The position numbers and the translations under genes are program-made. Source: a virus. From it: DNA of 64,000 nt. Location: IMG/VR virus record IMGVR_UViG_3300029922_000003, one strand, 5' to 3'. Below, one piece after another: positions 39,562-63,237 of this stretch. Positions within the stretch are counted from its first letter, which is position 1; every line of letters begins with the position of its first letter. Under the pieces are notes generated by a model. That model was given only the letters and a program-made list of their open reading frames with translations. It made no database searches and was not told the origin of the DNA.

Positions 39562-39894
39562 ATGCAAACCAGTTTTCTTCCTAGCGATCCAGATCCTTAT
39601 ATACCCCAAAGAGAAAATGCTGAAAATGCCCTAAAAGTATTCAAAGATTCAGTTCAGGCATTTTACCACCCAACCCCATCTGCCACTCTCCATAACATAG
39701 ATCAGATATCAACAGGGGGACACTCTTCCCTTCAGTTCCTAGAGGAAGCAGCTAGACACGCCCATACATATATCTCTCACCTAGAGAAGAACTTCCCTCA
39801 GTTCAACTATCCAGAAACTAGATCTAATGCTGTTCTTAGGGCAAAATTCGAGGAAAGCCTCCCGTCTGCCATAGCCCACTTGTTTAAGGCTTAG
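39562..39894 (+). CDS. Lone plus-strand hypothetical protein
   Basis: 110 aa exactly filling the gap between two minus-strand genes; AT-rich upstream. Confidence 0.65.
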   Translation: MQTSFLPSDPDPYIPQRENAENALKVFKDSVQAFYHPTPSATLHNIDQISTGGHSSLQFLEEAARHAHTYISHLEKNFPQFNYPETRSNAVLRAKFEESLPSAIAHLFKA

Positions 39895-42251
39895 TACCCT
39901 ACTGTACCTTTGGGTGGCTTTCCAAACTCTTTCCCGTACGCGAGGGCAGGGATTGGGTTTGTCCCGTGGATGTCTGAGTAGACATCGCCACTGATGACGT
40001 TCTTCTTGAGATTCTTCTGCACATAGGACGTACCCATCTGGGACATCCAATCCTTGTCGTGGGATGGGTTTTCCATCAGTCGAACCATGTGAGGCTCAAA
40101 GGCTGGCTTGTGATGGCTAACTAGAACCTGATCCTCACCCATGTCTCCAAGATTCTTGGCAACACTAGGAGTAATCCTTGTACCGATGCTGTAGTGCATC
40201 ACAGGAGCCTCTAGATAGTGATTGAGTGCTTTGGTTGGGTGCATGACAACAGAATCCCTGTGGGGCTTGTAGTCCTTGCTGAAGGCACTGTACTCAACTG
40301 TCTCATCGGGCAGATAGGAGTTTGTCTCGTCAGAGTCGTTGATCCTGACGTGATCTACAATGCCACGAACCAACACCTCAGCATTCCTTCTGAGCATAGG
40401 AATTCCACTCTCGCTGAAAGTGTCTTGTACCTGCTTTAAGAGATTTAAACGTCCCGCTCCGATCCCCTTCAGTCGAACAACATCAGATGGATTAATTGTA
40501 CCGGTAGAAATTCTGTCCCCAGCCTCTAACTTATCACCATGCTTTACCAGAACCTGGTGGTCTGGAGATACATAGTGCTTGTGCCCACCAATAGATACAT
40601 TGAACCCACCCTGTGGCATCGTTTCGATCTTGTCAACCTGTCCATCGTGTTCCGACAGAGAGGCTTTGTCTGGGAAAGTGTCTGGGACTTGAAACAAAGC
40701 ATTGATAGCCTTGAATCCTGTAGCTTTGGACGAGTTGGCAACGCCTGCTGAATTAGAAACAACAAGTCCATTTGCAAGAACAAATAGGTGATCTGGGTGA
40801 CCCACTTCTATATCAAATGTAGGTACACTACCCATCTCCTCAATGCCAACGCGCCTGAGCTTTCTGCAATCTACCACACAATCAAATGGTTCATCTCTCA
40901 ATCCGACAGAAGTAAATCCCATTGGTAATACTCCATAAAACTTATTGGTCTTAGTACCAATAGGCAAAACTTGATTTGTCCAATTTAGGTCATCCCCAGC
41001 ACACATACTTTTGTACCAACGAGATAGAATCTTGTGGTCAGCCGTACAAACAACACTTGTCCTTCCGAGATTGTTTATGCTGAACGTGTACCGCTGGCAC
41101 ACTCTATTCCCATTATCAAAAACATTTAGCACCTCAGATGGGAATGTATTGCCATTAATATCAGATCCAAGGACAAAATCCCCAGTCCGAACGTCTTGTA
41201 TTTCTTTTGTTGTCCAATCTGCCATCCTAACCAATGTTCCTTTTGATAAACAGTGCTTTTTAGATAGTTGCATTTGGCTTAAAGGCTCCGATGCAGAAGA
41301 TCCAGCAGACAGCCCAACTGCTTCTCCAAGGGCAGGGAACCCACCTCTCTCTCTTGTCCCAGCACACTTTGCGCATATTCCATTAGGTGACTCACAGGTC
41401 AAGGTAGATCTTACAACAATTCTATCCTTACCCGATTTTTTTATGTCACCAATAATCTTTGAAGTTAGTAAGGTACCAGCCTTATGCCCAGACGTATCTT
41501 TGGCTAGTACTGACCCTATGTTATCACCGTCATCTATATCTACTGGAATCCCAGTCTTGGTGCCGCAATCATGCTGCGTCACTATAAGATCTAACATTGA
41601 AGAATTGAGTTGTTTACTCAAAAATCCTGAATGCATTGTTGAGAATTTCGTTGATATTAGGCCAGCACGAGTTCCATATGACGCAGCAAAGTATTCAGCA
41701 GGGTTCAATCCCTCTGTGTAGGAATTCTTAATACCAATAGGTACTGGCTTGTTGTTTTGATCAACCACCAAGAAATCGGATCCAATATTACTATTGAGCT
41801 GGGCTTTATTACCACGAGCACCTGATGCAACCATCCTAGCAAGGTTTGATCCCTTTGCCATAGATGCATCAAAGATCATCCCTGGCATCTTGTTGGAGTA
41901 GTGATCGTAGAGCTTTACGAGGGCTTGCTCTCTTTTGTCCTGATCCAGACCTTTGTCTCCAAAGATACCACGCTCCTTCTGGGACACCTCATCCATCAAC
42001 TTGTCTTTGTCGATGGGGGATGCAAGGTCGTTCATAGAGAACGAGCTGCCAGTCTCAACCGCACCCTTTGACCCAAGGCGCAAGAGCTTGAAAGAAATGT
42101 CCCGATACTTATCAGGATCCTGCTCAGCTACTTGCTGAAGGATATCTTTGACCTCTTTGCTCCCGATGGGCTGATCGGGGGGTAGATCAGCCCTATACTT
42201 CTCGGGAACAATAGAGTCAAAAATTAGTCGTGCAACAGTAGTCGAGGCCAT
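39891..42251 (-). CDS. RNA polymerase beta' C-terminal subunit with mini-intein
   Basis: MVASGARG, bridge helix GLNPAEYFAASYGTRAGL..SGFLSKQL, Zn site HDCGT..CESPNGICAKC, trigger loop EPLSQMQLSKKH. Confidence 0.93.
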   Translation of the reverse strand: MASTTVARLIFDSIVPEKYRADLPPDQPIGSKEVKDILQQVAEQDPDKYRDISFKLLRLGSKGAVETGSSFSMNDLASPIDKDKLMDEVSQKERGIFGDKGLDQDKREQALVKLYDHYSNKMPGMIFDASMAKGSNLARMVASGARGNKAQLNSNIGSDFLVVDQNNKPVPIGIKNSYTEGLNPAEYFAASYGTRAGLISTKFSTMHSGFLSKQLNSSMLDLIVTQHDCGTKTGIPVDIDDGDNIGSVLAKDTSGHKAGTLLTSKIIGDIKKSGKDRIVVRSTLTCESPNGICAKCAGTRERGGFPALGEAVGLSAGSSASEPLSQMQLSKKHCLSKGTLVRMADWTTKEIQDVRTGDFVLGSDINGNTFPSEVLNVFDNGNRVCQRYTFSINNLGRTSVVCTADHKILSRWYKSMCAGDDLNWTNQVLPIGTKTNKFYGVLPMGFTSVGLRDEPFDCVVDCRKLRRVGIEEMGSVPTFDIEVGHPDHLFVLANGLVVSNSAGVANSSKATGFKAINALFQVPDTFPDKASLSEHDGQVDKIETMPQGGFNVSIGGHKHYVSPDHQVLVKHGDKLEAGDRISTGTINPSDVVRLKGIGAGRLNLLKQVQDTFSESGIPMLRRNAEVLVRGIVDHVRINDSDETNSYLPDETVEYSAFSKDYKPHRDSVVMHPTKALNHYLEAPVMHYSIGTRITPSVAKNLGDMGEDQVLVSHHKPAFEPHMVRLMENPSHDKDWMSQMGTSYVQKNLKKNVISGDVYSDIHGTNPIPALAYGKEFGKPPKGTVGY
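40752..41252 (-). mobile_element. Mini-intein (167 aa, no endonuclease)
   Basis: Starts CLSKGTLVRMAD, block B VCTADHKI, block F TFDIEV, ends LVVSN, Ser at +1. Confidence 0.92.
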
Positions 42252-42282
42252 CGTCTAATGTTGCACTAATAACAATCAAAAA

Positions 42283-42810: not shown

Positions 42811-43827
42811 TTACTGTTCCTCTCTGTTCTTCAATAGAAGACCAGCGAAGGATTCGCCATTGTTGATCGTGACATTCATCATTTGAAAGTTCCCAGTAGA
42901 TCTGGAAATAACTCGTACTAGATACCCGTGTGTCCAGGTGGTCGGATTGGTGTTTGCGTAGTGGGGCTGACGTTTGCACAAGCACCCAGGATTCCATGCG
43001 GCGATAAGCCCAACATTGGGCAAAAACTTTGGCTTGAATGTAGCCCTGTGTGAATCGAAGAATACAATATTCCCTGCAGCCTTGGAAAGGGCAACCTCAG
43101 CGGCGTCAGTAGCATTGCTGATTTTGTGAACAAAAGACACCTTATCAAACTTAACCCAACCAGGTGTAATACAGTCTCCGTGAGTCATACCTTGCCGATA
43201 ATACTGGATACCCCTTTCCTTAAGACCCAGGACATGCTCTGCACAAAATGTGTTGCGTAGAAGCTCTACGTCTTTATGATGGGCTAGCTTTTGATTAACG
43301 GCCCAGCGCTCTACACGCCACTCATGATTACCCTCAATATAGTGGATATCTTCACACGAAGAGTGTTTTTGGATTTGATCCAACAATATATTGGTTACCT
43401 TTACGTCGTCCTCGTATGAGTCCTCAGTCTCAGCGAGATACCCGAGCGTATGATGTTCTGCAAGAAATCCCGAGCAGTCTAGAAGGTCACCGCCGATAAT
43501 AATTCTATCCGGCCTGATCGTTTTTAGATCTCCTAGTAGTGCCGAAAAAGCCAGTGGGTCATGTTTGTTGCCGTGAACATCCGAGAAGATTACCTCGACT
43601 ATATCACCCTTGCTAGCCAAAGTCTTTTTGGGTCTTGGAGCGACCACCACACTTTCGCTCGAAGATCGAGCAGACTTTAGGGCTTTTGCTGTTTGTTCGT
43701 GAGCTTTTCGCTCCGCTTGTAAAGCCAACTTAAGGGCTTTGATTTCATTGCTGTGCTCAGCTTCTGAACTTCTGTGGGCGATCTGGCCCCAATTAGAACT
43801 GACAGGTTTTTTGTCTATGTTGCTCAT
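42811..43827 (-). CDS. Calcineurin-like metallophosphoesterase
   Basis: SDVHG, GGDLLD, EGNHE, later His motifs; N-terminal coiled coil. Confidence 0.85.
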   Translation of the reverse strand: MSNIDKKPVSSNWGQIAHRSSEAEHSNEIKALKLALQAERKAHEQTAKALKSARSSSESVVVAPRPKKTLASKGDIVEVIFSDVHGNKHDPLAFSALLGDLKTIRPDRIIIGGDLLDCSGFLAEHHTLGYLAETEDSYEDDVKVTNILLDQIQKHSSCEDIHYIEGNHEWRVERWAVNQKLAHHKDVELLRNTFCAEHVLGLKERGIQYYRQGMTHGDCITPGWVKFDKVSFVHKISNATDAAEVALSKAAGNIVFFDSHRATFKPKFLPNVGLIAAWNPGCLCKRQPHYANTNPTTWTHGYLVRVISRSTGNFQMMNVTINNGESFAGLLLKNREEQ

Positions 43828-45297: not shown

Positions 45298-45299
45298 AT

Positions 45300-45933: not shown

Positions 45934-48900
45934 TTACCCAATATCAACTTGACTGTCGATATTTAAGTCCCCTCTTCTATAGGCAGCAATAACATCTTCG
46001 GCGCTCTTGAACTTAGTCTTGGGTTTCTTATGATCCACAGCAGTAGTGTTGTACAACCCGAGGACGAACTCCTGAGATGGTGTATAGTGGGCATCTCTTC
46101 CTTTAATGGAGAGAAGGTTCTGAGATGGCATGAGCCTGTCTTTAATCTCTTTCACTGCGTCATCAGATACAGGGACGTGTACATTCATGGTGTTAGATAG
46201 AATAACTCCATCAGCGGCCATGAAGGTCTCATATCCTGGAACCGTTAGGTCGTATCCATCTTCTAACACTCCAGTCTTTTCTACAGAGTCGACGGGGGAC
46301 CAATTGATAGATTTGTTCTCTAGGAACCTCTCAGACCATTCCAGGAATTCAGGAGTGTCCACGTAGCATTGAGGGCGCTCAGTTTCGGCCAGGAATTTGA
46401 TAATGCGATCAGCAGTGGACTCTGGCAACTTACCAGTCTTGATTGGCCTGTCCAGTCCGCTATACACATTCTTCACCAATTTGTAGTTGGGGGTTCCAGC
46501 TGGAGCAACCCGAACGATTCCAGCCCTAATCTGCTGAGCGGACTTCATATCCAGCTTGCCAGAATCACGGCACTTATTGGCTACCTCAAGAGCGATTTCT
46601 ATGATTGCTCCGTCGCGACGATAGGTCTCCCTAATCTGATCAATTGCCCTGTAGGCGGAATTCCTAGAGACAGCTCCTCTGGCAATTCCTCCCCAAATAT
46701 TTCTGTAAACGGCCTTCTTATCAAGAGTCTCTTCGAGAGCAGCCCCACCAATCTTTTTAAGGTCAGAGGTAATCTGTGGGCTACCAAGTTGCCTCGAAAA
46801 CTCCTTCGCAAGACTATGCGGTATAAATACTGTATCGTACTTACCAAGCACAGGGGAGTCATCTCTGACAGGCGTGGTCAAAAATGCCTCTTTCTTCCAG
46901 GGGCACTCAAGATTCACAAAAATATTGTGTCTCTTACAGTCAACAGAGGAAAATGCCAGTATCCACGAATCATTTCCTGCGGTAGTGGTTTTGGACCAGG
47001 TGATTGTAGAATTAATCCCAAGAGTAGATGCAAGAAATTTAACATCGCGAACAAGCCTGAGTGACGTGCTAGAAAAAGCACATAGTAGCTGTGGCTTTTC
47101 CTTTGCGTGCGACACCGAGCAGGATCCATCAGTATCGACCAGTCCACAAAGAAGTCCCTCTCGGAACTCCCGTGGAGCTTGATACATAAACCCAGATAGG
47201 TGCTTGTTGCCAGAACCAGCGGTATTTTCGTCCCCCTCGCCACCCAAGTGAGTAGAAAGAAATTCTGCAAACAACTCGCTGTGCTTGAAGTTAAAAGTGT
47301 GCTTGACGGTATCTCCGTATCTGGATGGGTTGTTTGCTTTGAGCGTCTCTATCGAATAATGATAAAGAGGCCCAGACTTTAAAAACAAGTCTGTCAATAT
47401 TTTCTTTATAGATAAGGCATTATACCCCTTTAGATCTGCCATATTAATATTTCTAGAACCAAACATATCTGTTCGCTTGTGGTAATATTCATAATCTTTT
47501 TTGTCCCACCACCCATCACCACATAGGGCACCAAGCAAATACCCTAATTCCCTAGTGAGTGGGAGTTTCTTGAAGATACAATCCTCTCGATCTGTTATTG
47601 TGATCTCAGAAATTTCTGGCAACTGGCTCACAGCAGCTCCAGCGTGGGGGGAATATGGTACACAAATCTTACGGTTTAGCGCTTCAGTTGGAGTGCAGCG
47701 AATAAGGCCGTCTTCTGGTCTTGATGGATCCATTCCATAAACAGCGCGAGGGTCGTCGTCTGTAATGATCTGCCTACCAGCCAGCAAATTTACAATCTCT
47801 ATTTTCCTTTGGTAATGCTTGCTATAAAACGCAACTTGCGCCCATACAGGCTTGTTTGTCTTTTCGTCGAGTGCTAAGACCATTATATCCTCTGGGACAG
47901 AAAAGAAATCTATTGGACCATTCTTACCGTTCTCGTTGCGATTCGTAAACTCTCCGCGAGGAAAGTCCTCTAGGTCAACAACTGATACTTCATGAGTGGT
48001 GGGATTGTAATGTGGTAGTGTGATATCCTTGAACATGTCTTCACTACCGCACAATAGTGATGGATGTGTCAAATGATTTTTACTATTTGTGCATTTTTTT
48101 TGCAAACTCCTTAAAATAAGCACTTTACCAACCTGTTCGTCGCCGTCAAAGTCCGCAGTGAAGGGCTTTACAACTAATGGACTGATCCTAATTGAATCGC
48201 CAGTCACAATCTGTGGCTCTGCTCCCATTATGTTGAACCGGTGCAAAGATGGAGCTCGACTATACATGACCGGCCTAGCCTTCATCTCCTCCAACAAAAA
48301 CCTCTTTGCATAATCGGTCTTTCTCTCCACATTCAGAGCTGCCTGACTAGATGGCATTCCGTGCTTTACCAAGCGCCTCATGACAAACGGAGAATACATC
48401 TTCCACGCCATCTTTTCTGGGACCCCGATCTGATCCATATCTAGCTCATCGCTCGGGATAATTGCCCCCCTCCCAACAGTCCCCACTGTATGACCAATAA
48501 CCTTCCCCAGGAGAGATCCCGTCTTGGGTCCTCCACTCCCCGCTAGCTGGCGAATAAACCCTTTAACTCCCTTCTGCACAAGCTTGGGATGAAGCGGGTC
48601 ACCAAGCCCCATAACAGCAGCAAGCGAGTCGTACACAGCAAGTCTCTCATTGCCAGCCTCTTGATCACCAAAATCTTGTTTTGATTTTTCGTGAAGATCC
48701 CTGGCTGTCATTAGGTCTTTGTATAGATAATTGGAGTCAGCACTCAGCATCATCCTCCCAGCCATAGAAATAGGGCGATATGCGGCGGGTAAAACCGGAA
48801 CCTTAGTCATAAAGAAATCTTCCTTCCCAATACCCTGTTTCTTGATTCCAGAAATAATATTTAGCTTCTGTACGGCGCTATTCCTAGTCGTGCTAGATCC

Positions 48901-52773: not shown

Positions 52774-52810
52774 TTTGTTTGTGCCTCTTTACTGTTTGGC
52801 CTCAGGTTGT

Positions 52811-52859: not shown

Positions 52860-53273
52860 GAGACTATCCTGAAGACTCCACTCACCATCCCTAACCAGCT
52901 TCATTGGTTTGACCAAGAAGGCTGTGAGGAGTATCGCCATAACTATGGCTCCTGGGATAATCGTGGATATCAGCACCCCAAATGCTATTGGGACGCTCAG
53001 GAAGCTTATGATAGCTGCTCCTGGGATAATCCCCACAAGAGAGTACATGGCGTTCGCCCATTGCATCTCGAAGAGCTCGCCTGGATAAGAGAAGCCACCA
53101 AGCGCCTTAAATGTCCATACCAAGGATGTTATGGACAAAACTAGCACAATACTCCCAATCACAGCAGTGCCTACTATGACACTGCCGGCTACCAAACTAG
53201 CAGCCCAAATCACCATACCCCAAATTAGGGTAAGGAACATGGACGTTGATATACTCATCATTCTATAGTTCAT
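52857..53273 (-). CDS. Multi-pass membrane protein
   Basis: 138 aa with about four hydrophobic segments. Confidence 0.7.
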   Translation of the reverse strand: MNYRMMSISTSMFLTLIWGMVIWAASLVAGSVIVGTAVIGSIVLVLSITSLVWTFKALGGFSYPGELFEMQWANAMYSLVGIIPGAAIISFLSVPIAFGVLISTIIPGAIVMAILLTAFLVKPMKLVRDGEWSLQDSL

Positions 53274-53352
53274 ATTTCAATTGCTCGGCTTTGGTCTGTT
53301 GAGCATCAGGTTGTTTGTTTGTTGGTCGATACTAAAAATAACTTAATAATCG

Positions 53353-53374
53353 ACTCATAATATTATGGCAAAAA
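53353..53374 (-). promoter_or_regulatory. Candidate phage promoter motif, copy B
   Basis: TTTTGCCATAATATTATGAG directly after a terminator. Confidence 0.45.
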
Positions 53375-53395
53375 GGGGGGTATTTTATACCCCCC
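53375..53395 (-). terminator. Terminator hairpin
   Basis: GGGGGGTAT/ATACCCCCC stem followed by TTTTT on minus strand. Confidence 0.75.
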
Positions 53396-53456
53396 TCCCC
53401 ACCGTGATTACTCCCCACACCAGTCTTGCAAGTCTTTCTCCGTTGCTTAATCCCAT
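53385..53456 (-). CDS. 23-aa micro-peptide
   Basis: AAGGAG 4 nt before ATG; MGLSNGERLARLVWGVITVGRGV. Confidence 0.4.
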   Translation of the reverse strand: MGLSNGERLARLVWGVITVGRGV

Positions 53457-53505
53457 AAGTCTCCTTTTGTTTGTTGTTGTTTTACCAAGTCGAATATTAT
53501 CTTAA

Positions 53506-54162
53506 TCAGTACCCGCACTTTTTATGAGCTACGTACTGGACACTAACGACGTCACCATCATTAAAGAGATAGTCCTCAGCAGGCTTTACCCCATTAATGA
53601 GATACTCAACACGTTCTGGGCTATACCCCAATGCAGCCGCTATGTTGCGATTTTTTCTAATCGCATCGAGTCCAGCTTCACGAGGCAAACTACGGACTAG
53701 CAAAGAAGTCCCATGAAAGCTCACGTTAATGGAGGGGAAGTTCTCTTTTTGATAAGCGTCTGCATCCCTTTTGGCTTTACTAAAATGCCCTATTAGAGAA
53801 TCCAGCGAATCCCTATCTACCCCCCAGCAACTATATGCTGGGTCTGTCTTGGGGATCAACAACACGCTAAACCCACGGACCTCAAGAACCCCTCTTAGGT
53901 GATACACTAGCTCCGTTATAGTGGCGCTACCCACACCAGCAATTGCCTTCAACCCATGCTCCTGCAGGACTATCCCGCTTGGCCCAAACCTCCCAATTAC
54001 ACTGGTGTGTTTTGGAACTAGTCGTCTGCGACGTCCAATCGCAATCTTACCATCCCCCTCTATTGTTGTAGTCCAGGTAAGACCCCACAACGCAGCAAGT
54101 GTGCGAATGGGGTTATCCTCACTTAAAATCGCCTTTATCGGCGGTATGATTCCTTTTTTCAC
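53506..54162 (-). CDS. Protein with C-terminal ubiquitin-like (beta-grasp) domain
   Basis: AALGYSPERVEYLINGV..DYLFNDGDVVSV. Confidence 0.6.
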   Translation of the reverse strand: MKKGIIPPIKAILSEDNPIRTLAALWGLTWTTTIEGDGKIAIGRRRRLVPKHTSVIGRFGPSGIVLQEHGLKAIAGVGSATITELVYHLRGVLEVRGFSVLLIPKTDPAYSCWGVDRDSLDSLIGHFSKAKRDADAYQKENFPSINVSFHGTSLLVRSLPREAGLDAIRKNRNIAAALGYSPERVEYLINGVKPAEDYLFNDGDVVSVQYVAHKKCGY

Positions 54163-54186
54163 AATTCCTCCTTTTGTTTGTTGTTT

Positions 54187-54525
54187 TTACCAGTCGAATC
54201 CAACATCAATTTGACTCCCATGATAGGGGTCGTCTATTGAGTTTATGCTGGATCCAAGTGTCCTGATGATATTGTCAGCATATGATTCTGGTTTCTCTTT
54301 GAGGACCTTGCTGACCCTTTTGACTTTCGCCCTACACAAAGCTGCCTTCCCCTTAGCAGACTTGAAGTACCTCTTCGCGCTCTTCTTCCCAGACTCGGAC
54401 TGCCTCCAGTCTTTGATGTACTTCTTGCCAGCTTCTGTAGCACTCCACCACTTTCTGTAAGCAGGATTTGGCTTCCCATTTATTCTGGATGGTGGTCTCT
54501 CTGTTGTAGCCTCAGTTTGTTTCAC
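54187..54525 (-). CDS. Basic hypothetical protein
   Basis: 112 aa with repeats S..GK....R(W/Y). Confidence 0.6.
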   Translation of the reverse strand: MKQTEATTERPPSRINGKPNPAYRKWWSATEAGKKYIKDWRQSESGKKSAKRYFKSAKGKAALCRAKVKRVSKVLKEKPESYADNIIRTLGSSINSIDDPYHGSQIDVGFDW

Positions 54526-54545
54526 TTTTACCTCCTTGTTTGTTG

Positions 54546-55112
54546 TTATACTACCGCTATCTGTTCGTACTCTTTAATTGCAGACAGGTCCCATACGCAA
54601 CCCCCAGTGACATCCCACCCCCAAAATGGAGATATATAGTCACCAGTATCTGAAGAGTGCAAAAGCTTGGGATTTGCCACAACTATTCCTTTGTGTTGGG
54701 CTGCTACCCTACTCCAATCAGTTATTCCAACTCGAGCCGCAAAGTCTTGCTCACTACACCCATCTTTGTCAGCTTTATCCCATTCAAATGGATCTACCAT
54801 GAATTCCCGGACAAAATCACTTACATCCTCAATTGTATTGAGTACCAAGAAGTCTTGTTTGTGGAACTCAAAAAGTAGAACCCTTTTGTATATAGATAAC
54901 CTTTCTTCCCCCCAGTCATCGTCTTTGATTCCAACTAGGAAGTCGAACCACTCGGTTCCGTGTGAGAACCAAATCCCCCTGGGCTTTCTTCTGGTCTTTT
55001 GCTCATAGGGATAATTGAGATTAAGGTGTTCTATCCTAGTTAGAGAAACTGGCTTGTCTTGATACATCGACAAGCTGTCCCTAATCTTAGCCCAATACCG
55101 CTTATCAAACAT
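54546..55112 (-). CDS. Trp-rich hypothetical protein
   Basis: Start ATG 55112 with GGAGG RBS; KPRGIWFS..EW, WGWDVTGGCVWD. Confidence 0.7.
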   Translation of the reverse strand: MFDKRYWAKIRDSLSMYQDKPVSLTRIEHLNLNYPYEQKTRRKPRGIWFSHGTEWFDFLVGIKDDDWGEERLSIYKRVLLFEFHKQDFLVLNTIEDVSDFVREFMVDPFEWDKADKDGCSEQDFAARVGITDWSRVAAQHKGIVVANPKLLHSSDTGDYISPFWGWDVTGGCVWDLSAIKEYEQIAVV

Positions 55113-55189
55113 ATGCCTCCTCTTGTTGTTTGTTGTTAACCTCCAATAGCTGCCCACCCCTATAGGGATGAGCAGACTTGATTGTTACT

Positions 55190-55666
55190 CTACTGGGGGG
55201 GGCGACCCATTGGAAGACCAGCAGGAGAGGGAGTTGTCCTTCTCGACTCATCCTTCGCTTTTTGTGTCATCTTGGGGATCGCTTTACCTTTTAGACGACG
55301 TATGTCGAAGTCTGCAGGGTCGATCATCTCGCCAGTCTTTGGGATTGTACCCTTGGGCTGAACAAGTACGTGAACGCACCCATTGGTGTGTTCGGTGAGG
55401 CCGATTGCCATTCCTTTGAAGCCGCTAGCCTCATCCTCGACCTCTGTGCCTAGGATTTGACGTGGCATCAAATCTTCCTCAAGGGTGCCACCATTGATCC
55501 TGGAGGCAGCAATGTACTCGGGTTTCAGAGGCTGAAGGGTCTCGGGGTTTAGCCCCTTTGGCTGAAAGATATAGCTTTCATTTCCACTCAGGCTCACATG
55601 CTTGTGAGTCAAGCGCCCCTTGATACCAGTTGCTTTGTCCGTTACTGATGTGTTTAGTTTAAACAT
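55190..55666 (-). CDS. Hypothetical protein with internally duplicated small beta domain
   Basis: VTDKATGIKG..YIFQPKG and VEDEASGFKG..VLVQPKG. Confidence 0.7.
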   Translation of the reverse strand: MFKLNTSVTDKATGIKGRLTHKHVSLSGNESYIFQPKGLNPETLQPLKPEYIAASRINGGTLEEDLMPRQILGTEVEDEASGFKGMAIGLTEHTNGCVHVLVQPKGTIPKTGEMIDPADFDIRRLKGKAIPKMTQKAKDESRRTTPSPAGLPMGRPPQ

Positions 55667-55696
55667 TTTCGTTTTCCTTTGTTTGTTGTTTTTGTG

Positions 55697-55996
55697 TTAG
55701 ACGAGATCCTGCTGTTGTGGCAGGTCGTCTGCGTGTAGTCCTCTCGATATGGCATCTCGCAAGATATCTCCAATGGAAACATCCTCCTGAATGGATTGTG
55801 AAATCAGCTTTCTGAGTTGCACAATAGTTAAAGCATCAAGGTTAATCTCAACCGGCACCCAAGGCACCAGAGTTATTGACCCATCCTGATTAGCTCGAAT
55901 GGTGAACTTATCCCCACATTCGATTCCCAATTCTGCCACTTCTTCATCACTGAACTGGATGAAGTATTCTTCTTTGGACTGCACAACCTTCTTCAT
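55697..55996 (-). CDS. AbrB/MazE-like DNA-binding protein
   Basis: Start ATG 55996; KVVQSKEEYFIQFSDEEVAELGIECGDKF. Confidence 0.6.
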   Translation of the reverse strand: MKKVVQSKEEYFIQFSDEEVAELGIECGDKFTIRANQDGSITLVPWVPVEINLDALTIVQLRKLISQSIQEDVSIGDILRDAISRGLHADDLPQQQDLV

Positions 55997-56027
55997 TTTT
56001 GTTTGTTTGCTTGTTTTGGTTTGTTGT

Positions 56028-56399
56028 TTACTGACTGATCTTTTGATCTGATAACCACTTGATCTGCGCATGATCGTTGACACACTTACTGTACCTATTG
56101 ACCACCCCGGCTGTAGACAATAGCGCTAGCGCACCAAACACCACTGTAAGGATAGCGGCAATCATTACTAAAGTGTCTCTCTGTTGCTGGGATGTCGTGA
56201 CCCTTTTAACCATGCTTGGCCGCGCATTTTCAATAAGCGAAATGACACTCCCCACAGCTAGCCATCCAAATAGCATAACCCCAGAGAATGCAAACAACGC
56301 TACAATCAGGTCTGTGTAAAACGCGAACTCGAACTGGTTTATGTAGAACTGCCTACTGGTCTCATCAAGTGCTGCACTGTATTCGATAATTGGATTCAA
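56028..56399 (-). CDS. Two-TM membrane protein
   Basis: TTG start with GGAGG RBS; two hydrophobic segments. Confidence 0.65.
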   Translation of the reverse strand: MNPIIEYSAALDETSRQFYINQFEFAFYTDLIVALFAFSGVMLFGWLAVGSVISLIENARPSMVKRVTTSQQQRDTLVMIAAILTVVFGALALLSTAGVVNRYSKCVNDHAQIKWLSDQKISQ

Positions 56400-56753
56400 T
56401 TATTCCTCCTTTTTGATTTTGTATTTGAAGACATTAACTGTTGAAGTTTTGTCCTCCTGAAGGACATGGACAAGGACCAAAAAGTGTGTTTTGTCTAATG
56501 AGTAAACAGGGTTAGTGCTGGAAATAGTGACTTTTGTATCTTTCTCTTCAGCAGCTTCCGTCATACCATCTACAGCCTCTTTCTGAAAGGCATACACTTC
56601 GGGGTACTTGCCCTCGTCAACTTCCTCACCATGTGAGATGCTGTCGTCATCAAAGAGTAAATCCATGTCAAAGACATTGGGATCTATCACCTTGATAGCT
56701 TCTACCATCTTGAGCCTGGTGGGCTCAATTAGTATTTGTCTTAGTATATCCAT
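56400..56753 (-). CDS. Acidic hypothetical protein
   Basis: 117 aa ORF. Confidence 0.6.
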   Translation of the reverse strand: MDILRQILIEPTRLKMVEAIKVIDPNVFDMDLLFDDDSISHGEEVDEGKYPEVYAFQKEAVDGMTEAAEEKDTKVTISSTNPVYSLDKTHFLVLVHVLQEDKTSTVNVFKYKIKKEE

Positions 56754-56766
56754 TCTTGTTGTTAGT

Positions 56767-56841
56767 TGGTGTGCCCGACAGGACTCGAACCTATAACCAG
56801 CTCTTTAGAAAAAAGCTGCTCTTCCATTGAGCTACGAGCAC
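56767..56841 (-). tRNA. tRNA-Arg(UCU)
   Basis: GTGCTCG/CGGGCAC acceptor stem, encoded CCA, D arm GCTC/GAGC, anticodon stem GCTTT/AGAGC with loop TT-TCT-AA, T loop TTCGAGT. Confidence 0.92.
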
Positions 56842-56853
56842 ACTAAAAACTAA

Positions 56854-57138
56854 TTAAGCGTCGATATCCGGCGCTTCGTTCTGGCCCTTCCACATTGCTG
56901 TGGTTTGGGGTGCAGACTGATCTGAGGCTGGTTGGTGGAGTGGCTCATCGGAGAAAATTCCGATCACCGCCTCAATAACCTTTTCCTCATCCTTGGTCTG
57001 TCCTGCACCACAGACGGCATTGCCAATGGCAGTGACGGTTGTAGCAAGGGCAAGCCCCTCCTTCGCTCCCATCTGGGACTCGATGAATTCTGCCATTTCC
57101 TTGGCGGCATACGCCAAGTCTTCTTTTGATTTAATCAT
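56854..57138 (-). CDS. Hypothetical protein
   Basis: 94 aa with AC-rich leader. Confidence 0.6.
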   Translation of the reverse strand: MIKSKEDLAYAAKEMAEFIESQMGAKEGLALATTVTAIGNAVCGAGQTKDEEKVIEAVIGIFSDEPLHQPASDQSAPQTTAMWKGQNEAPDIDA

Positions 57139-57155
57139 TGTTGGTGTGTTTGTTG

Positions 57156-57425
57156 TTACTTGGACTGAGCTGGAATTTTTCCCAGATCAGCCAATCGTTT
57201 GTTCTCTCGCTCTTCCTCACTAACACTGGCAATAGCCAGCTTTAGCTTGCTTGTGTCCTCTTCCAAGGACTCCCTTGCTAATATCAAATACCTCGTTGAG
57301 TCATTTGGTAAATTCAAGAGGTGTTTTTTGTTCAGCTCGTTGATGCCAGCTAGTGCAGCCTCGAAATTCTTCAAGTGCCTATGCATCCTCTCGAGCCTCG
57401 ACTCTTCTTCTTCTGTTGTTGCCAT
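57156..57425 (-). CDS. Coiled-coil hypothetical protein
   Basis: Start ATG 57425 with AGGAGG RBS. Confidence 0.6.
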   Translation of the reverse strand: MATTEEEESRLERMHRHLKNFEAALAGINELNKKHLLNLPNDSTRYLILARESLEEDTSKLKLAIASVSEEERENKRLADLGKIPAQSK

Positions 57426-57432
57426 TTTCCTC

Positions 57433-57624
57433 CTATAGTGTGAACTTTGATTTACTGTCGTTATCTGGCCCAAGTAGTTCGTCCATTATTCCCTCTTCTT
57501 CGAGGTAACGTATGACGGCCTCCTTGTCCAGCTCGGGTGGGCACTCTACCTCAATGGTATCAGCAAATTCCAATACCGAGACTACGTGCCCACCCTGATA
57601 GATGAAGCGCTTAAGGATCCTCAC
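57433..57624 (-). CDS. Small hypothetical protein
   Basis: 63 aa filling gap. Confidence 0.5.
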   Translation of the reverse strand: MRILKRFIYQGGHVVSVLEFADTIEVECPPELDKEAVIRYLEEEGIMDELLGPDNDSKSKFTL

Positions 57625-57892
57625 CTAGCATTTCTCCTGTAATTGGATTTATGAATACAGACTTAGGCAGTGGTACCCTCAATAGAGAGTAAACCATCGC
57701 CTTGCCTTTGTCGGTGAGATAGAACTTCGTTCCCGTTTTGTCCCCCGCCATAGCAGCGATAAGATCCTGTCCTATTAGCTGATGCGAGGAATGTTTCCAT
57801 GCCACCTTTTGGGACTCTGAGGGTTCTTCATTGGAATAGTATATATGTAGCAAAAGCTCTATATCAGCTGGGCTCCATCTTCTATCTTTCAT
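57611..57892 (-). CDS. Small hypothetical protein, possibly winged-helix
   Basis: LIGQDLI...FYLTDKGKAMV pattern. Confidence 0.55.
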   Translation of the reverse strand: MKDRRWSPADIELLLHIYYSNEEPSESQKVAWKHSSHQLIGQDLIAAMAGDKTGTKFYLTDKGKAMVYSLLRVPLPKSVFINPITGEMLGEDP

Positions 57893-58149
57893 GATCCACC
57901 TCCTTCTGAGTACTCATCCCCCCGGTCGCAGAAGTAGTTGTGAGCAGCCTTTAGGTCTCGGACAGTTTTCTCTGTCTCTGCGATATCCTCCTTGTCCAAC
58001 TTGGTCTTCCCCTTTGCTTTGGATGCATCCTTGATCCACTCCTCAAGGTCTTCAATCTCTGCCTTTAGCAAAGCTGCAGTCATTGCTGTTGTATCGAAGA
58101 AGTCTGCAAACCTCTCTCCAAAACTTTTTCTTCTTTTCTTTCCACTCAT
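57889..58149 (-). CDS. Small hypothetical protein
   Basis: 86 aa with AGGAG RBS. Confidence 0.6.
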   Translation of the reverse strand: MSGKKRRKSFGERFADFFDTTAMTAALLKAEIEDLEEWIKDASKAKGKTKLDKEDIAETEKTVRDLKAAHNYFCDRGDEYSEGGGS

Positions 58150-58167
58150 CGTTTTTCTCCTTTGTTG

Positions 58168-58383
58168 TTATACAACGGCATTTGCCGCGTATTTGGGTTC
58201 TAGTGGTCTGTACTCCTCTGGAGGAGCTATCTCGCCACACTTTTCGCACTTCATCTTTGGAATGACGTGCCTGTGGAAGTGGTGGTCATCATAACCACCG
58301 CCTTCCTGCTCGTAACCGCAGTGACATATGTACACTGCTGTAAAATCACGACGATACTGACTCTTGATGTCTTTTATTTTCAT
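58168..58383 (-). CDS. Small Zn-ribbon protein
   Basis: RRDFTAVYICHCG..CEKCG. Confidence 0.7.
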   Translation of the reverse strand: MKIKDIKSQYRRDFTAVYICHCGYEQEGGGYDDHHFHRHVIPKMKCEKCGEIAPPEEYRPLEPKYAANAVV

Positions 58384-58862
58384 TCTGCTATTTCAAAAGG
58401 GTCTACCCCTTCTATGAATTCCGGTGTGTACCGACAATATGATATTGGAGGGGTACTGATTAAATAAACAGGAGTTATCTTGTCTACTGCATACCCAAAC
58501 AAAAACCCAAGCACTTGCTGGGCCATAGCACAGTTCTTTTCTTCTTTATCTAAATCTGTCGAGAATGGATCAATACGGTAAAAACAGTCTTTGAACAATT
58601 CAAACACCCAGTCATGTTTATAGATAATAATATCCATAAGCCCCATTTCACTATCAGAAAACCAGTTTCCTATTCTAGCCTTTACTGGTACATCTAGACG
58701 GAATGAGAGTATAGTCTTAAGCTGCTGCTTGAAGTACTTAGACTGATACACATGAATTGGGATAATACAGTGTGCCATCGCTTTCGCTCCGCCATCCACA
58801 GACATTATCATTGCATTTTGAATTACTGTGATTATTGAACTAATTTGATCTCGCTGCTGCAT
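58380..58862 (-). CDS. Hypothetical protein
   Basis: 160 aa; LGFLFGY. Confidence 0.6.
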   Translation of the reverse strand: MQQRDQISSIITVIQNAMIMSVDGGAKAMAHCIIPIHVYQSKYFKQQLKTILSFRLDVPVKARIGNWFSDSEMGLMDIIIYKHDWVFELFKDCFYRIDPFSTDLDKEEKNCAMAQQVLGFLFGYAVDKITPVYLISTPPISYCRYTPEFIEGVDPFEIAE

Positions 58863-59172
58863 CTTGTTCTTTTAGTTTCTTTGTATGAAAGGAGCTCGAT
58901 ATGTGCCAGTGTGAACAATGCTCACACATGTACACTCTCAGAGCTGATGTATTTCCTTTCTTTGTTCTTAGTAAGTGATTCTTACTATCATTTGCCCCAC
59001 CTTCCGATGGATACATTGTTTTTCCCGTAGTTGGGCATTTCTTCTTCTTCTCGAACTTAGGTCCGAGAGATTCGATCAGCTCAATGGGGACATCTTTGGG
59101 TGGTAGTCCAATTTCCTTTAGGATCTTGTCTACTACCCCATTTGTTGGGCCGAGGCCCTTGACTCCTTTCAT
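58840..59172 (-). CDS. Small Zn-finger protein
   Basis: CPTTGKTMY..RVYMCEHCSHWHISS. Confidence 0.7.
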   Translation of the reverse strand: MKGVKGLGPTNGVVDKILKEIGLPPKDVPIELIESLGPKFEKKKKCPTTGKTMYPSEGGANDSKNHLLRTKKGNTSALRVYMCEHCSHWHISSSFHTKKLKEQDAAARSN

Positions 59173-59207
59173 AAATTACTCAATTTTAACCAAATTGATT
59201 TTTCTCC

Positions 59208-59252
59208 TGTTGATTGTTAAAAATAACCACAAAGCCCCTCCATGCGGAGGGG
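59208..59252 (-). repeat. 45-bp intergenic hairpin repeat, copy 1 of 2
   Basis: TGTTGATTGTTAAAAATAACCACAAAGCCCCTCCATGCGGAGGGG. Confidence 0.9.
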
Positions 59253-59309
59253 ATGTGATGATTGACTATTACACAAGAATCTATTCTGTGTGCCTACCTT
59301 TAATTTTTA

Positions 59310-60065
59310 TCAGGACTCCTTTTTTACACCACATTCCACGACAAATAGTCCCTCTGATATTAAGAATTGTTTCAGCTGCATAGCAAATAGATAGGCAGTA
59401 TGGGGGGCAAACCTCAAATCAACAGCAAAGCTCTCACGAGATGGAGAATAGATCCTGTAAACCAGCTTCCCCTCCAAAACATTAAGATTAATAGCCAAGT
59501 GCCTCATTACCAGACGCCCCCCGACACCAGCAATAATAAAATCAACCACCCTCGACCAATGCTTGCCAGGCGCTGAAGCTATCCATCGCTCCCCAGTACC
59601 CGAATAAAACTTAATCATAGCAAAAAGCCCTACTTCTTTTTTATATCCACTACGATAAAACCTAAAAGCACGAGTAGTATAAAGATTTTCTGCATAAAAA
59701 CTCTTACGACTTTTTTGTAACTCCTTTAGCTGAATTTTAAAATTTGCAATTCCAGTTGGGGAATTTATGTAAAACTTTTTGTTGTAAAATTGTTTTATAA
59801 AACTAATGCCCTCCCTTAAATATCTTAGTGCAGTACGGTGGGGGAACCCGCAATGCCTATAAACCTCTGAGATAGGAATTGGCGGCATTTCTCCAAGTCC
59901 ATACACCATAGACAAAACCGTGGCTTGATTCTTAGATAACTTACATAAGCACATCTTTAAAAAATCCAGCTCAAGTTTGTCCTCTAGATCTTGCCACGGA
60001 GGTGGACAGTTGTCCGCAACACCATGCGCCTTTTCTATTTGTACCACGGTAAAGTTCATTTTCAT
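59310..60065 (-). CDS. Protein with N-terminal sigma-70 region-4-like HTH
   Basis: LSKNQATVLSMVYGL..PPIPISEVYRHCGFPHRTALRYLREG. Confidence 0.6.
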   Translation of the reverse strand: MKMNFTVVQIEKAHGVADNCPPPWQDLEDKLELDFLKMCLCKLSKNQATVLSMVYGLGEMPPIPISEVYRHCGFPHRTALRYLREGISFIKQFYNKKFYINSPTGIANFKIQLKELQKSRKSFYAENLYTTRAFRFYRSGYKKEVGLFAMIKFYSGTGERWIASAPGKHWSRVVDFIIAGVGGRLVMRHLAINLNVLEGKLVYRIYSPSRESFAVDLRFAPHTAYLFAMQLKQFLISEGLFVVECGVKKES

Positions 60066-60074
60066 TTTCCTTTT

Positions 60075-60119
60075 TGTTGATTGTTAAAAATAACCACAAT
60101 GCCCCTCCATACGGAGGGG
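60075..60119 (-). repeat. 45-bp intergenic hairpin repeat, copy 2 of 2
   Basis: 43/45 identical to copy 1. Confidence 0.9.
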
Positions 60120-60137
60120 CTGTGTGTATTTAGTTAA

Positions 60138-60758
60138 TTACTCCTCCTTGAGACTGACACCCATCTCATTAAGCATCCTTACCAACTGCTTTGGTGTTAA
60201 CCTAGTTGATGCGTAGTGGATGATGACAGACTTGCCATCGATACTGTAGGGAGAGGGATTCCCTGGAGTTGCATTGCGAATGGCCTTTGCCTTTTGGCTT
60301 TCGATCCAAGCTCTTTGGGCAGGGATGTCACGGACCTTATTCCTATCAAATACCTGGCGGCACTGATCGAACGTAAGGTTCTCTGCGTCAATCTGCAGGA
60401 TAGATACTTCATCGTTTTTGCCGACGATTAATACCTCAAGTGGACCACTCAGCAATCGGTCCTGATCACTCTTCGCAATGCGAGTCATGTATGAACAGGC
60501 TGGGTAGTTCACCGTCAATAGGATTGGGTTGAGCTGCTTGCGTCCAATCCTCTCGAGCTGGATGATTACATCCTTACCTCCACCAGACTGTTCAGCAACT
60601 TCCTGTGCGCTCATCCCAAGATTGTCCATCATATGGACACAGACGTTTCCTGCCTCTGCAAGATTTCTAACAGCTTGGGACAGTAATTGCCTAAACTGTG
60701 TGATGGCTTTTTGCCGAGCCTCATCCATTGTTTCTGCTACTTCTACTACTTCATTCAT
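60138..60758 (-). CDS. Hypothetical protein
   Basis: 206 aa ORF. Confidence 0.65.
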   Translation of the reverse strand: MNEVVEVAETMDEARQKAITQFRQLLSQAVRNLAEAGNVCVHMMDNLGMSAQEVAEQSGGGKDVIIQLERIGRKQLNPILLTVNYPACSYMTRIAKSDQDRLLSGPLEVLIVGKNDEVSILQIDAENLTFDQCRQVFDRNKVRDIPAQRAWIESQKAKAIRNATPGNPSPYSIDGKSVIIHYASTRLTPKQLVRMLNEMGVSLKEE

Positions 60759-61254
60759 TTCGGTTGTTTGGTTGTGCCATTTCTGGCGGGTTGTTTTCTG
60801 ACACTAATGCGCTGGACTGAAAGAATACTTTGACGCATAGCTCTGAGTGTTTTTTAGCTCTAGCCTTGGCATTTAAAGCTATTTGATGCTCCCGAGCCCT
60901 CTCAGGGTTTTGGGCTCTCCATTTGATTGAGTGCATTTTTTGCATTTCCCGAAACCTCTCAGGATTTTCAGCCTTAAGCTTGTCGCAGTATCTCCTTCGT
61001 CTCTCTCGACGCTCCTTCCGAAGCTTCTCAGGATTTTCAGCTTTCTTTTTTTTCCACCACCTTCTATATGCCTCCCTTCTCCTCTCTAAGAACTTCTCAG
61101 GATCTCTAGCTTTACTTTTTTCGTAATGTACTCGAGCCATCTGGATCATCTCCCGAAATTTCTCGGGATTTTCAGACTTAAGTTTGTAGTAGCGTTTCCT
61201 GGAGTTCTCACTTTTCCTCTCCTTACGCTCTTCCTCAGTAAAAACTTTTCTCAT
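60751..61254 (-). CDS. Charged ENPEK-repeat protein, tandem paralog 2
   Basis: True start ATG 61254 (MRKVFTEEERK) in ATGA overlap. Confidence 0.7.
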   Translation of the reverse strand: MRKVFTEEERKERKSENSRKRYYKLKSENPEKFREMIQMARVHYEKSKARDPEKFLERRREAYRRWWKKKKAENPEKLRKERRERRRRYCDKLKAENPERFREMQKMHSIKWRAQNPERAREHQIALNAKARAKKHSELCVKVFFQSSALVSENNPPEMAQPNNRNE

Positions 61255-61670
61255 GTTACCTCCGTTGGTTGAATGTTTCCTGACACTAATAGAGATGATT
61301 GGAAGAATACTTTGACACAAAGAGCTGAGTGTTTTTTAGCTCTAGCCTTGGCATTAAAAGCTATTTGATGCTCACGGGACTTCTCAGGGTTTTGGGCTCT
61401 CCATTTGACTGAGTTTATTTTTAGCATTTCCCGAAACCTCTCAGGATTTTCAGCCCTAAGCTTGTCGGAGTATCTCCTTTGGGACTCTCGAGCTTGCTTC
61501 AAAAGCTTCTCAGGGTTTTTAGCCTTAAGCCTGTAGTAGGTCTCTCTCCCTATCTCCCTTCTCCTCTCTAAAAATTTCTCGGGATTTTCAGCCACCCCTT
61601 TGTGGTAGTATCTCCTATAACTCTCTCTTCTCCTCTCCTTACGTTCTTCCTCAGTAAGAACTTTTTTCAT
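61251..61670 (-). CDS. Charged ENPEK-repeat protein, tandem paralog 1
   Basis: MKKVLTEEERK; shares KWRAQNPE..REHQIA.NAKARAKKHS.LCVKVFFQSS. Confidence 0.7.
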   Translation of the reverse strand: MKKVLTEEERKERRRESYRRYYHKGVAENPEKFLERRREIGRETYYRLKAKNPEKLLKQARESQRRYSDKLRAENPERFREMLKINSVKWRAQNPEKSREHQIAFNAKARAKKHSALCVKVFFQSSLLVSGNIQPTEVT

Positions 61671-61714
61671 GTTACCTCCGTTGGTTGAATTTTACGGATG
61701 GATAAAGAATCCAT

Positions 61715-61734
61715 TCCATTACATTATGGCGAAA
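61715..61734 (-). promoter_or_regulatory. Candidate phage promoter motif, copy C
   Basis: TTTCGCCATAATGTAATGGA at the head of the small-gene island. Confidence 0.45.
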
Positions 61735-61806
61735 ACAAGCCCTCTTTTGACCCACCCATAAATGCACACTAGCGCACAGCTAGTATCTAAAGAAAACACT
61801 AAAGGA

Positions 61807-63237
61807 CTATACCTTTAGGAGCGACGCTGCACCAACAGGAGCAGGGATAGCATTGTGCTCAGGGATCTTATTGCCCCTAGGGAATGCAACAACCGACTGG
61901 CTCATCTGGATAGCATTGATGTACTCAGGCTTTCCAGTGCGCTTGTTCATTACTGGGAAGTAGATGTTTCCATCACTTCCTTTTTTAGCTACTGAGGAGT
62001 AGCGCTGATCGACACCAATGTTCTTGGACTCAGAGGATCTAATAGGATCCAGCACCATTGCTTGAGATGGGGACACTGCCCTACTGGACATCGGCACCGC
62101 ATCCATTGAAGTAATAGCTCCCTCACCTGTCTGCACAACTCTCTTCTGGTAGTCGTAGATCTCCATAGGATTAATCCCAGAGATGTGGTTGCTCAAGCTA
62201 TTGCCGACAATTAATCCATCTAGTTGCGGAGTAAAGTATCCAGGACGAATTCCCTTCAATGTCCTATTGTAAGTAGAGCGATGCAGAAGTGTCCTTGCTA
62301 GTTGGCCGGCATCCTTCTTAACCCTTTCTTCAAAGAGATCCTCTGGGCCCATGAAGTTCTTGTTGGCCATGCTATCACGGTCATCCTCCTCCTCAAGCCC
62401 CTTATTGATGTTGAGCAGCTTCTGGCTAGCCCTAAGAATCAACCTAGGACTAAGGTTCTTATCAGCGACGCCAAGCGTCCTTTGAGTAACCTCAGGATCA
62501 ACCTCACCTCTGCCAAGCTCTTCGAGGAGCTCTTTCTTTTTTTGCTTGTCGTCTGCGCCAGGCGTTGCCTTTCGGCCCATGAGTTTATCATAGAATTTGC
62601 CAAATGACTTGTCGTCATCATGGCTCTTATTGGCGTCCAAAAGTTGTGGACCCCAATACTTCATAATCTCCCCATCATCCATACCCATTCCCTTAAGGAC
62701 TGGATATAGCTTAATGCGGCTTTTACCGATCATGACTCTATAAACACCAGTATCTGGCTCCATAAAAAGTCGCATTCCTTGGCCCGTGCCGCTAATTGTA
62801 TTTATGTGACTTTCTATTTCGCCACTGTCTTTGCGCCTAGCGTAGATACCTGGCTTCAGGCGTTGTTGTCCAGCCACAAGGCTGTACTCACTACCCCCGT
62901 TGATAAAAGTCCCCCTGTGGGTCATCCAGGGCACCCTAGAAACCACCCCCTTAAATTCATCAAGCTTCTGACCGGTTAGCTTGTCGTGCAAAGTAATTGT
63001 CCCACTAATGGGTACAGATAGCTTACCTCCTGTTAGGAGTGCTTTCTTTTCGTCGTGCACACCATATGGCTTCTTCTGGTCGTAGTGCAGATCCTTGGCA
63101 CTAATAACAACCTTTTCATTCTCCATGGGGAACTTAGCCTGATAGGCACCAAGAGTCCTGTCCAGAATGTCCTGCCTCAGCCCCTCTGGATCGTCAAACC
63201 CACGGAGGGTAACTCCTTTGGGGGATGGGATGTCCAC
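61807..63237 (-). CDS. RNA polymerase beta N-terminal subunit
   Basis: PWMTHRGTFINGGSEYS..QQRLKPG, RDSMANKNF, INPMEIYDYQKRV..GEGAI, DPIRSSESKNIG (cf. CPIETPEGPNIG). Confidence 0.9.
   Translation of the reverse strand: MDIPSPKGVTLRGFDDPEGLRQDILDRTLGAYQAKFPMENEKVVISAKDLHYDQKKPYGVHDEKKALLTGGKLSVPISGTITLHDKLTGQKLDEFKGVVSRVPWMTHRGTFINGGSEYSLVAGQQRLKPGIYARRKDSGEIESHINTISGTGQGMRLFMEPDTGVYRVMIGKSRIKLYPVLKGMGMDDGEIMKYWGPQLLDANKSHDDDKSFGKFYDKLMGRKATPGADDKQKKKELLEELGRGEVDPEVTQRTLGVADKNLSPRLILRASQKLLNINKGLEEEDDRDSMANKNFMGPEDLFEERVKKDAGQLARTLLHRSTYNRTLKGIRPGYFTPQLDGLIVGNSLSNHISGINPMEIYDYQKRVVQTGEGAITSMDAVPMSSRAVSPSQAMVLDPIRSSESKNIGVDQRYSSVAKKGSDGNIYFPVMNKRTGKPEYINAIQMSQSVVAFPRGNKIPEHNAIPAPVGAASLLKV

Follow-up and report, generated by a model that had tools for sequence, protein, structure and literature searches.

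The 64,000 nucleotide stretch of viral DNA analysed here (the window) carries, all on its minus strand, three open reading frames (ORFs) which together account for the β and β′ subunits of a multisubunit RNA polymerase. One of them joins the C-terminal half of β to the N-terminal part of β′ in a single chain (fusion gene); the remaining parts are specified by separate genes for the N-terminal half of β (β-N) and the C-terminal part of β′ (β′-C). The window represents the minus strand of IMG/VR record IMGVR_UViG_3300029922_000003 (G000:C1:26741-90740), which is 103,653 bp in length and judged to be approximately 54% complete, and it stems from a tailed phage that has not been cultured and is a relative of Salmonella phage Arash. 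We read the three genes, with a probability of about 0.75, as specifying a single bacterial-type polymerase of three chains belonging to an Arash-like phage, which is sigma-dependent, free of alpha and probably carried in the virion. The three pieces, their positions and their motifs had been described correctly in an earlier note made from the DNA alone: the ORFs are open under translation table 11.

Within the fusion protein Pfam recognizes Rpb2_6 (residues 119-474, E 1.6e-33), Rpb1_1 and Rpb1_2 (to residue 938, E 3.4e-17), followed by LAGLIDADG_3 and Intein_splicing. Mapping by blastp against Salmonella RpoB and RpoC, numbered as in E. coli, places residues 19-343 and 341-556 on β 626-958 and 1063-1338 (of 1342), and residues 636-963 and 1585-1669 on β′ 160-494 and 464-550. 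An alignment of 123 sequences shows that β residue 1342 abuts fusion residue 560 and that β′ restarts, without a linker, at approximately residue 24. In this alignment the β barrel keeps the GDK...R...KGV lysine motif (E. coli K1065 and K1073), aligned with Salmonella, and a motif of the NRAPxLHR type is also retained, while the DFDGD magnesium loop of the β′ double-psi barrel is found at residues 932-936. Since the lysine motif and DFDGD lie in the same 1670 amino acid product, both double-psi barrels do indeed reside in one chain, as the earlier note had proposed. Intein-free homologs align through the N-extein and the junction unbroken, and residue-level mapping indicates that, apart from a zinc finger, no conserved part of RpoB or RpoC is missing.

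Single metagenomic contigs can in principle carry sequencing or assembly errors which hide a stop or frameshift, in this case between a β-C and a β′-N gene, and the earlier note had named a hidden stop at the junction as the point on which its description might fail. Nothing else in favour of such an artefact was found, and we consider its probability negligible. The identical 1670 amino acid protein occurs on 16 contigs (Logan, JGI and two ENA samples, at least four samples in all) with conserved neighbours, and the two other members of its 90% cluster each differ from the window protein by one residue. The junction is, moreover, continuous in all 120 of the nearest proteins, in 540 clusters of homologs, and likewise in Arash and Vibrio phage D69, whose genomes are finished. 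It is also confidently modelled. The structure predicted was that of P0005, an intein-free homolog 73% identical to the window protein, using AlphaFold with a 50-sequence alignment; the mean predicted local distance difference test score (pLDDT) was 84 and the predicted template modelling score 0.70, with pLDDT values of 75-92 at the junction. Low confidence was confined to the first 60 residues, the predicted region of contact with β-N. When this model was submitted to Foldseek, bacterial β chains ranked first (E ~4e-38).

The fusion defines a very large phage family. All 120 proteins listed for a query of residues 300-940 carry Rpb2_6 and Rpb1_2 on one chain. A second query, of 261 residues centred on the junction, was searched against 1.84 billion representatives. 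It matched 540 clusters (50% identity) with an E-value of 1e-30 or below, and 991 when the limit was 1e-10, and all 150 best stretches cross the junction position. The fused chain ends 85-95 residues past DFDGD in every member in which that motif is recognizable. Cultured phages are included: Arash gp206 (1525 amino acids) matches fusion residues 26-936 as one piece with 32% identity, and Vibrio phages D69, D148 and D181 have the same fusion, D69 gene 0261 (1527 amino acids) being annotated as “hypothetical”. The β′-C partners in these phages are Arash gp216 (606 amino acids) and D69 gene 0264 (609 amino acids). Much longer proteins, of up to 3350 amino acids, are common in the family (P0056, P0067, P0073, P0084, P0099, P0187, P0310 and others), and precomputed Pfam matches in the long fused chains include SET (PF00856), PF22547 and PF02834 in addition to inteins.

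The literature searched contained no description of either layout, the two-chain fusion or the three-chain form. The view of the earlier note that the arrangement is unfamiliar from characterized enzymes stands with regard to published descriptions, but as a peculiarity of this window the fusion is overstated; the possibility it had raised, that the arrangement is already common among phage polymerases, is borne out by sequences, including Arash gp206 and D69 gene 0261, and not by literature or biochemistry. The fusion family is thus known from sequences, and the three-chain form, in which β is cut, is a rarer sub-variant of it. What is new relative to Arash and D69 is this extra cut and the location of β-N 10.9 kb from the fusion gene.

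Polymerases whose β and β′ are in pieces, which lack alpha and omega, and whose genes are dispersed call to mind the non-canonical enzymes of the phiKZ/AR9-type jumbo phages, which are sigma-independent and come in virion and non-virion sets; a cut in β′ after the barrel is likewise a feature of phiKZ-type enzymes (PMC7598289). That the window specifies a polymerase of this type is nevertheless very improbable. The best PHROGs matches, phrog_25354 [E 5.5e-47] and phrog_24349 [E 2e-42], are families as large as full-length β and β′ proteins; far lower scores go to those whose annotation is “RNA polymerase beta subunit” [E 5.7e-20 or weaker]. The nearest solved structures of the fusion protein are bacterial β′ (8k60_D, E 8e-39) and β chains, and among the best 60 matches per search in the PDB those of both the fusion protein and β′-C are all bacterial or cyanobacterial. 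No phiKZ-type phage was present among the best 30 of 41 tblastn matches. In addition, only one polymerase set is found and sigma genes are present, whereas phiKZ-type phages are without a recognizable sigma (PMC7598289; PMC7824862), and in no phiKZ-type subunit is β joined to β′.

Two inteins, one of them exactly at the catalytic loop, are missing from the earlier note. They interrupt both chains which bear parts of β′, occupying E937-N1585 of the fusion protein (intein 1) and C334-N500 of β′-C (intein 2). In intein-free homologs DFDGD is followed by two residues and NVHVP; in the window protein it is followed by 649 residues and then by Thr-Met-NVHVP, and it is this comparison that sets the limits of intein 1. 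The alternative of an intron at DFDGD appears less likely, as the insert is in frame, contains blocks F and G, matches Intein_splicing, and has relatives with TxxH. Intein 1 keeps a terminal Asn, Thr at +1, blocks F/G and both LAGLIDADG motifs. Its first residue is Glu, Asp stands where block B should have His, and the last residue but one is Ser. Inteins at the identical site in P0039 and P0049 possess Thr or Ser at position 1 and the block-B His, and end in Asp with Ser at +1, while that of P0080, again at the same site, looks canonical, with a His-Asn end and Thr at +1. The DFDGD site of this polymerase family is thus home to three or more kinds of intein. Intein 2 has Cys1, a terminal Asn and Ser at +1; its Hint and Hom_end_hint matches (21-23 bits) fall below the Pfam cut-offs, and neither Arash gp216 nor the partner genes of 618-629 amino acids contain the insert.

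The departures of intein 1 from the Ser/Thr1 and His of inteins at the same site raise the possibility of a crippled copy, in which the N-terminal splicing chemistry has been lost, the polymerase is inactive or becomes active only after C-terminal cleavage, and the phage depends upon the host polymerase. We regard this as unlikely. All 1670 codons, including the 649 of the intein with both of its LAGLIDADG motifs, form an open frame that does not vary from sample to sample; the catalytic residues of the exteins are intact, as are the terminal Asn and Thr +1; and a dead copy of a polymerase that is probably essential should not recur in several environments. Furthermore, inteins with a non-nucleophilic first residue which still splice do exist (classes 2 and 3).

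The β′-C protein matches Pfam Rpb1_5, interrupted by a Hint module. By blastp its residues 1-333 correspond to β′ 569-936, ending at the trigger-loop His, and residues 557-655 to β′ 1186-1283; overall it spans β′ from about residue 569 to the end, taking in the bridge helix, the second zinc site, the trigger loop and region H. The nearest structures are bacterial β′ chains (E 5.9e-45). Arash gp216 aligns with it on either side of the intein insert, and its length without the intein, 619 residues, agrees with the 606-629 amino acids of the partner genes in relatives. Residues 45-140 of an Arash “structural protein”, gp7 (226 amino acids), match β′-C at about residues 224-320 (positions 41292-41582 of the window, minus strand; 34% identity, E 5e-7), which suggests on sequence similarity that Arash may possess a stand-alone copy of a β′ domain.

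The β-N protein (Rpb2_2, E 3.9e-10) is equivalent to E. coli β from residue 1 to approximately 625-640, that is, the protrusion, lobe and fork. Arash gp206 aligns consecutively with the two window proteins, residues 12-472 with β-N (29% identity) and 478-1438 with the fusion protein, indicating that β has merely been cut and no part of it lost. Among the 120 nearest family members β-N is present in the fused chain of 75 and absent from it in 45. Stand-alone β-N proteins of 460-510 amino acids form some 55 clusters (43-89% identity); for several of these the longest contig equals in size one bearing a split fusion gene, and in one case a β-N gene and a fusion gene (P0007) were directly confirmed on a single contig. 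At the site of the cut, fused relatives of the near clade (P0016, P0022) contain a variable linker of 100-130 amino acids, partly rich in Pro and Ala, and more distant fused forms have no linker. Trans-splicing of β-N to the fusion protein by a split intein was considered and rejected: β-N has only some 18 extra residues and the head of the fusion protein about 25, and the plain variable linker in fused relatives also speaks against it.

The spacing of the two β genes varies. In the split relative L011 (P0018) only 100 bp separate the gene for a β-N of 504 amino acids from the fusion gene downstream (L011:7767-12372); the sister P0016 is fused, and L011 could represent either a fission of recent date or a gene disrupted by a frameshift or stop. 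Within the clade of the window itself some 10 kb lie between the halves, with cargo differing between contigs, that of the P0007 contig (approximately 9.9 kb) including a glycosyltransferase, an MYG1 exonuclease and a 1545 amino acid protein. The gene order of the window over the spacer block recurs on independent contigs.

A FastTree phylogeny of the shared columns was rooted on a concatenate of Salmonella β and β′-N. Arash and D69 diverge first. β-N is fused in every member of a 69-member clade, while a 51-member clade comprises all 45 of the split forms and six fused ones; the window protein falls in a 13-member clade, all split, with a support of 100. At least five changes between the fused and split states are required on this tree. 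An ancestral two-chain state with later splitting is the likely direction of change, with the reservation that the root joins long branches. The likely history is one of linker expansion, followed by fission and then dispersal.

As the earlier note had stated, the N-terminal zinc finger of β′ is absent: the 123-sequence alignment reveals that the window protein and all family members displayed, Arash among them, lack segment 66-98 with the zinc-binding Cys residues C70, C72, C85 and C88. Its failure to find an alpha subunit has likewise been upheld by hidden Markov model (HMM) searches. Alpha domain PF01000 was not detected in the window's record (54% complete), Arash, D69 or Rhizobium phage RHph_Y65, nor PF01193 in Arash, D69 or RHph_Y65, this search having covered those three genomes; omega (PF01192) was not found in the window's record, Arash or D69. 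The alpha and omega HMMs gave matches in 14 of 14 control genomes, and the Arash and D69 genomes are complete. The β′ barrel is present as a single copy in each of the window's record, Arash and D69.

A sigma-70-family gene is located elsewhere in the window. Its product matches phrog_351 (E 4.5e-14) and aligns with Arash Gp10 from end to end at 26% identity (E 2e-17); the gene is syntenic with that of Gp10, lying beside a homolog of the baseplate-J/gp13 gene. A Pfam Sigma70_r3 match of 22.8 bits is below the cut-off, and no Sigma70_r2 or Sigma70_r4 match was obtained in the window's record, such that sigma was detected only through phrog_351 and the comparison with Gp10. Judged by similarity and gene order it is the ortholog of the Arash virion sigma Gp10, and its product is likely to be the initiation factor of this polymerase. 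In purified Arash virions gp206, gp216 and Gp10 are abundant (PMC10585845); the authors name gp206 “β”, the fusion being unmentioned.

Taken together, these data lead us to propose a polymerase of three chains, the first being β-N, the second the C-terminus of β joined to β′ at about residue 24 and carrying the two β lysines and the DFDGD loop, and the third β′-C, which contributes the bridge helix and the trigger loop. Both inteins, the one at DFDGD and the one next to the trigger-loop His, would be removed to yield the mature chains. These would most likely assemble through the interfaces used by bacterial β and β′, with the covalent junction tethering the catalytic halves, and transcription would most likely start with the phage's own sigma factor. 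By analogy with Arash, the enzyme is probably packaged in the virion and would transcribe early genes. The ancestor of the family would have had two chains, the whole of β joined to β′-N, plus β′-C; the cut in β would represent a later fission within a variable surface linker, after which genes amounting to some 10 kb would have been inserted between the halves.

Several points weigh against this proposal. Canonical splicing of intein 1 is doubtful, given its Glu1, block-B Asp and penultimate Ser, and an unspliced fusion protein would hold 649 residues within the catalytic loop. With the record only about 54% complete, an alpha-like subunit, or some additional one, could be encoded outside it or be too divergent for the HMMs, and the alpha of the host could be borrowed. 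The claim of virion carriage derives from a single proteome, which counts 88 proteins as structural and for which the authors allow carry-over (PMC10585845). The phylogeny comes from FastTree alone, with a root that connects long branches. Finally, the function of any member of the family is read from sequence.

Table 1. Location of the polymerase genes, their parts and other features in the window
Feature	Position	Strand	Remarks
β-N gene	61807-63237	-	476 aa (amino acids); GTG start
Spacer block between β-N and fusion gene	50947-61806	-	10.9 kb; ~24 small ORFs without family matches
tRNA-Arg (anticodon TCT), inside spacer block	56767-56841	-	
β-C::β′-N fusion precursor gene	45934-50946	-	1670 aa; 1021 aa without intein
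N-extein, residues 1-936	48139-50946	-	Equivalents of β 626-1342, then β′ ~24 to 464; DFDGD at end
β/β′ junction, residues ~556-566	49249-49281	-	β′ residues 1 to ~21 missing
Intein 1, residues 937-1585	46192-48138	-	649 aa; LAGLIDADG endonuclease; between DFDGD and next strand
C-extein, residues 1586-1670	45934-46191	-	β′ 464-550; chain stops ~85 residues past DFDGD
Metallophosphoesterase, between fusion gene and β′-C	42811-43827	-	phrog_221, E 1.5e-20
β′-C gene	39891-42251	-	786 aa precursor; 619 aa without intein
Intein 2, residues 334-500	40752-41252	-	167 aa mini-intein; directly after trigger-loop His (E. coli H936)
Sigma-70-family gene	3904-4614	-	236 aa

The minus strand carries nearly all of the window's genes (see also Table 1), among them a baseplate-J-like gene and those for the tail sheath and major head protein. 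Metallophosphoesterase genes are situated near the polymerase genes in Vibrio phage D69 (gene 0256) and relative L012 as well. Directly downstream of β-N is a region of 486 bp without an ORF (61321-61806), one of the longest non-coding gaps of the window, in which a search for tRNAs was negative. Among the 61 window ORFs scanned, one matched the IS200-like transposase family Y1_Tnp (E 5.7e-32), and matches to two transposase PHROGs were obtained as well. A k-mer search of 22 intergenic regions disclosed no convincing shared promoter motif; no match was found in the phage collection when the region was searched by megablast; and tblastn found no counterpart in the window, at E 1e-3, of the Arash portal protein, helicase gp217 or sigma gp196.

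Cellular RNA polymerases have β and β′ as distinct polypeptides mounted on a dimer of alpha. The known exceptions are certain bacteria with whole-gene fusions, the split subunits of cyanobacteria, plastids and archaea, and the fully fragmented enzymes of the phiKZ type. The present family re-cuts the enzyme such that both barrels are on one chain and the rest is supplied in trans, with alpha, omega and the zinc finger absent and sigma kept. It is chiefly the existence of a very large phage family with a re-cut enzyme, undescribed in the literature searched, that is of interest. Such an enzyme would be a natural minimal sigma-dependent polymerase and would provide a test of assembly without alpha, and the cultured members, Arash and Vibrio phage D69, make these questions testable. 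The three-chain form bears in addition on how far fragmentation can go, and would exemplify a gene that underwent fission in a disordered linker and whose halves then dispersed. One might go further and suggest, tentatively, that the covalent junction replaces the alpha-dimer scaffold, yielding a self-sufficient, sigma-dependent virion polymerase free of alpha and omega, and that the Glu1 intein splices by a chemistry outside the three known classes or gates activity. If that were true, the three-chain variant would show that only the link from barrel to barrel need be covalent.

The earlier note had set the layout apart from that of phiKZ/AR9, in which the pieces are all separate, and from bacterial fusions of whole β to whole β′, and both distinctions hold in a comparison with known systems. 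With the mReC phages (PMC7481178), for example RHph_Y65, the window's phage shares a tailed morphology and bacterial-like, deep-branching β and β′ genes. The mReC group, which is compared here by its published description, was defined by separate β and β′ matches of at least 800 amino acids (Weinheimer and Aylward 2020, PMC7481178), and neither fusion nor split is mentioned in that paper; the β′ of RHph_Y65 is unsplit (1127 amino acids). In cyanobacteria and plastids β′ is also cut downstream of the catalytic barrel, into γ (RpoC1) and RpoC2, but γ is not joined to β. Residue 34 of cyanobacterial RpoC2 aligns with β′-C residue 54, and the γ/β′ break is therefore some 20 residues further on. 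The phiKZ/AR9 enzymes are, like this one, phage-encoded and free of alpha and omega, with β and β′ in pieces and β′ cut after the barrel (PMC7598289, PMC7824862), the break of the phiKZ type lying in the same general region (PMC7598289); they differ in having no β/β′ fusion, no sigma, two paralogous sets, and sequences which are far more divergent. Natural full-length rpoB-rpoC fusions occur in the Helicobacteraceae and Wolbachia (Zakharova 1999; Lane and Darst 2010; both as cited in PMC7483510). They share with the window's fusion the covalent connection of the β C-terminus to the β′ N-terminus and the presence of both barrels in one chain. The bacterial forms are, however, cellular enzymes in which the whole of β and of β′ is included, with two alpha subunits, omega and the zinc finger, whereas the fused chain of the window is trimmed at both ends and its partners are separate genes. 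The closest likeness is to Arash (OQ632216) and Vibrio phages D69, D148 and D181, with which the window has in common the β-to-β′ junction, the end point about 90 amino acids past DFDGD, the loss of the zinc finger, the lack of alpha and omega, a single polymerase set, an orthologous sigma and a site among head and tail genes. Identity to the polymerases of these phages is 29-32%. Their fused chain contains the whole of β, giving an enzyme of two chains, whereas in the window β is cut at approximately residue 625-640, three chains result, and, unlike in those phages, two inteins are present.

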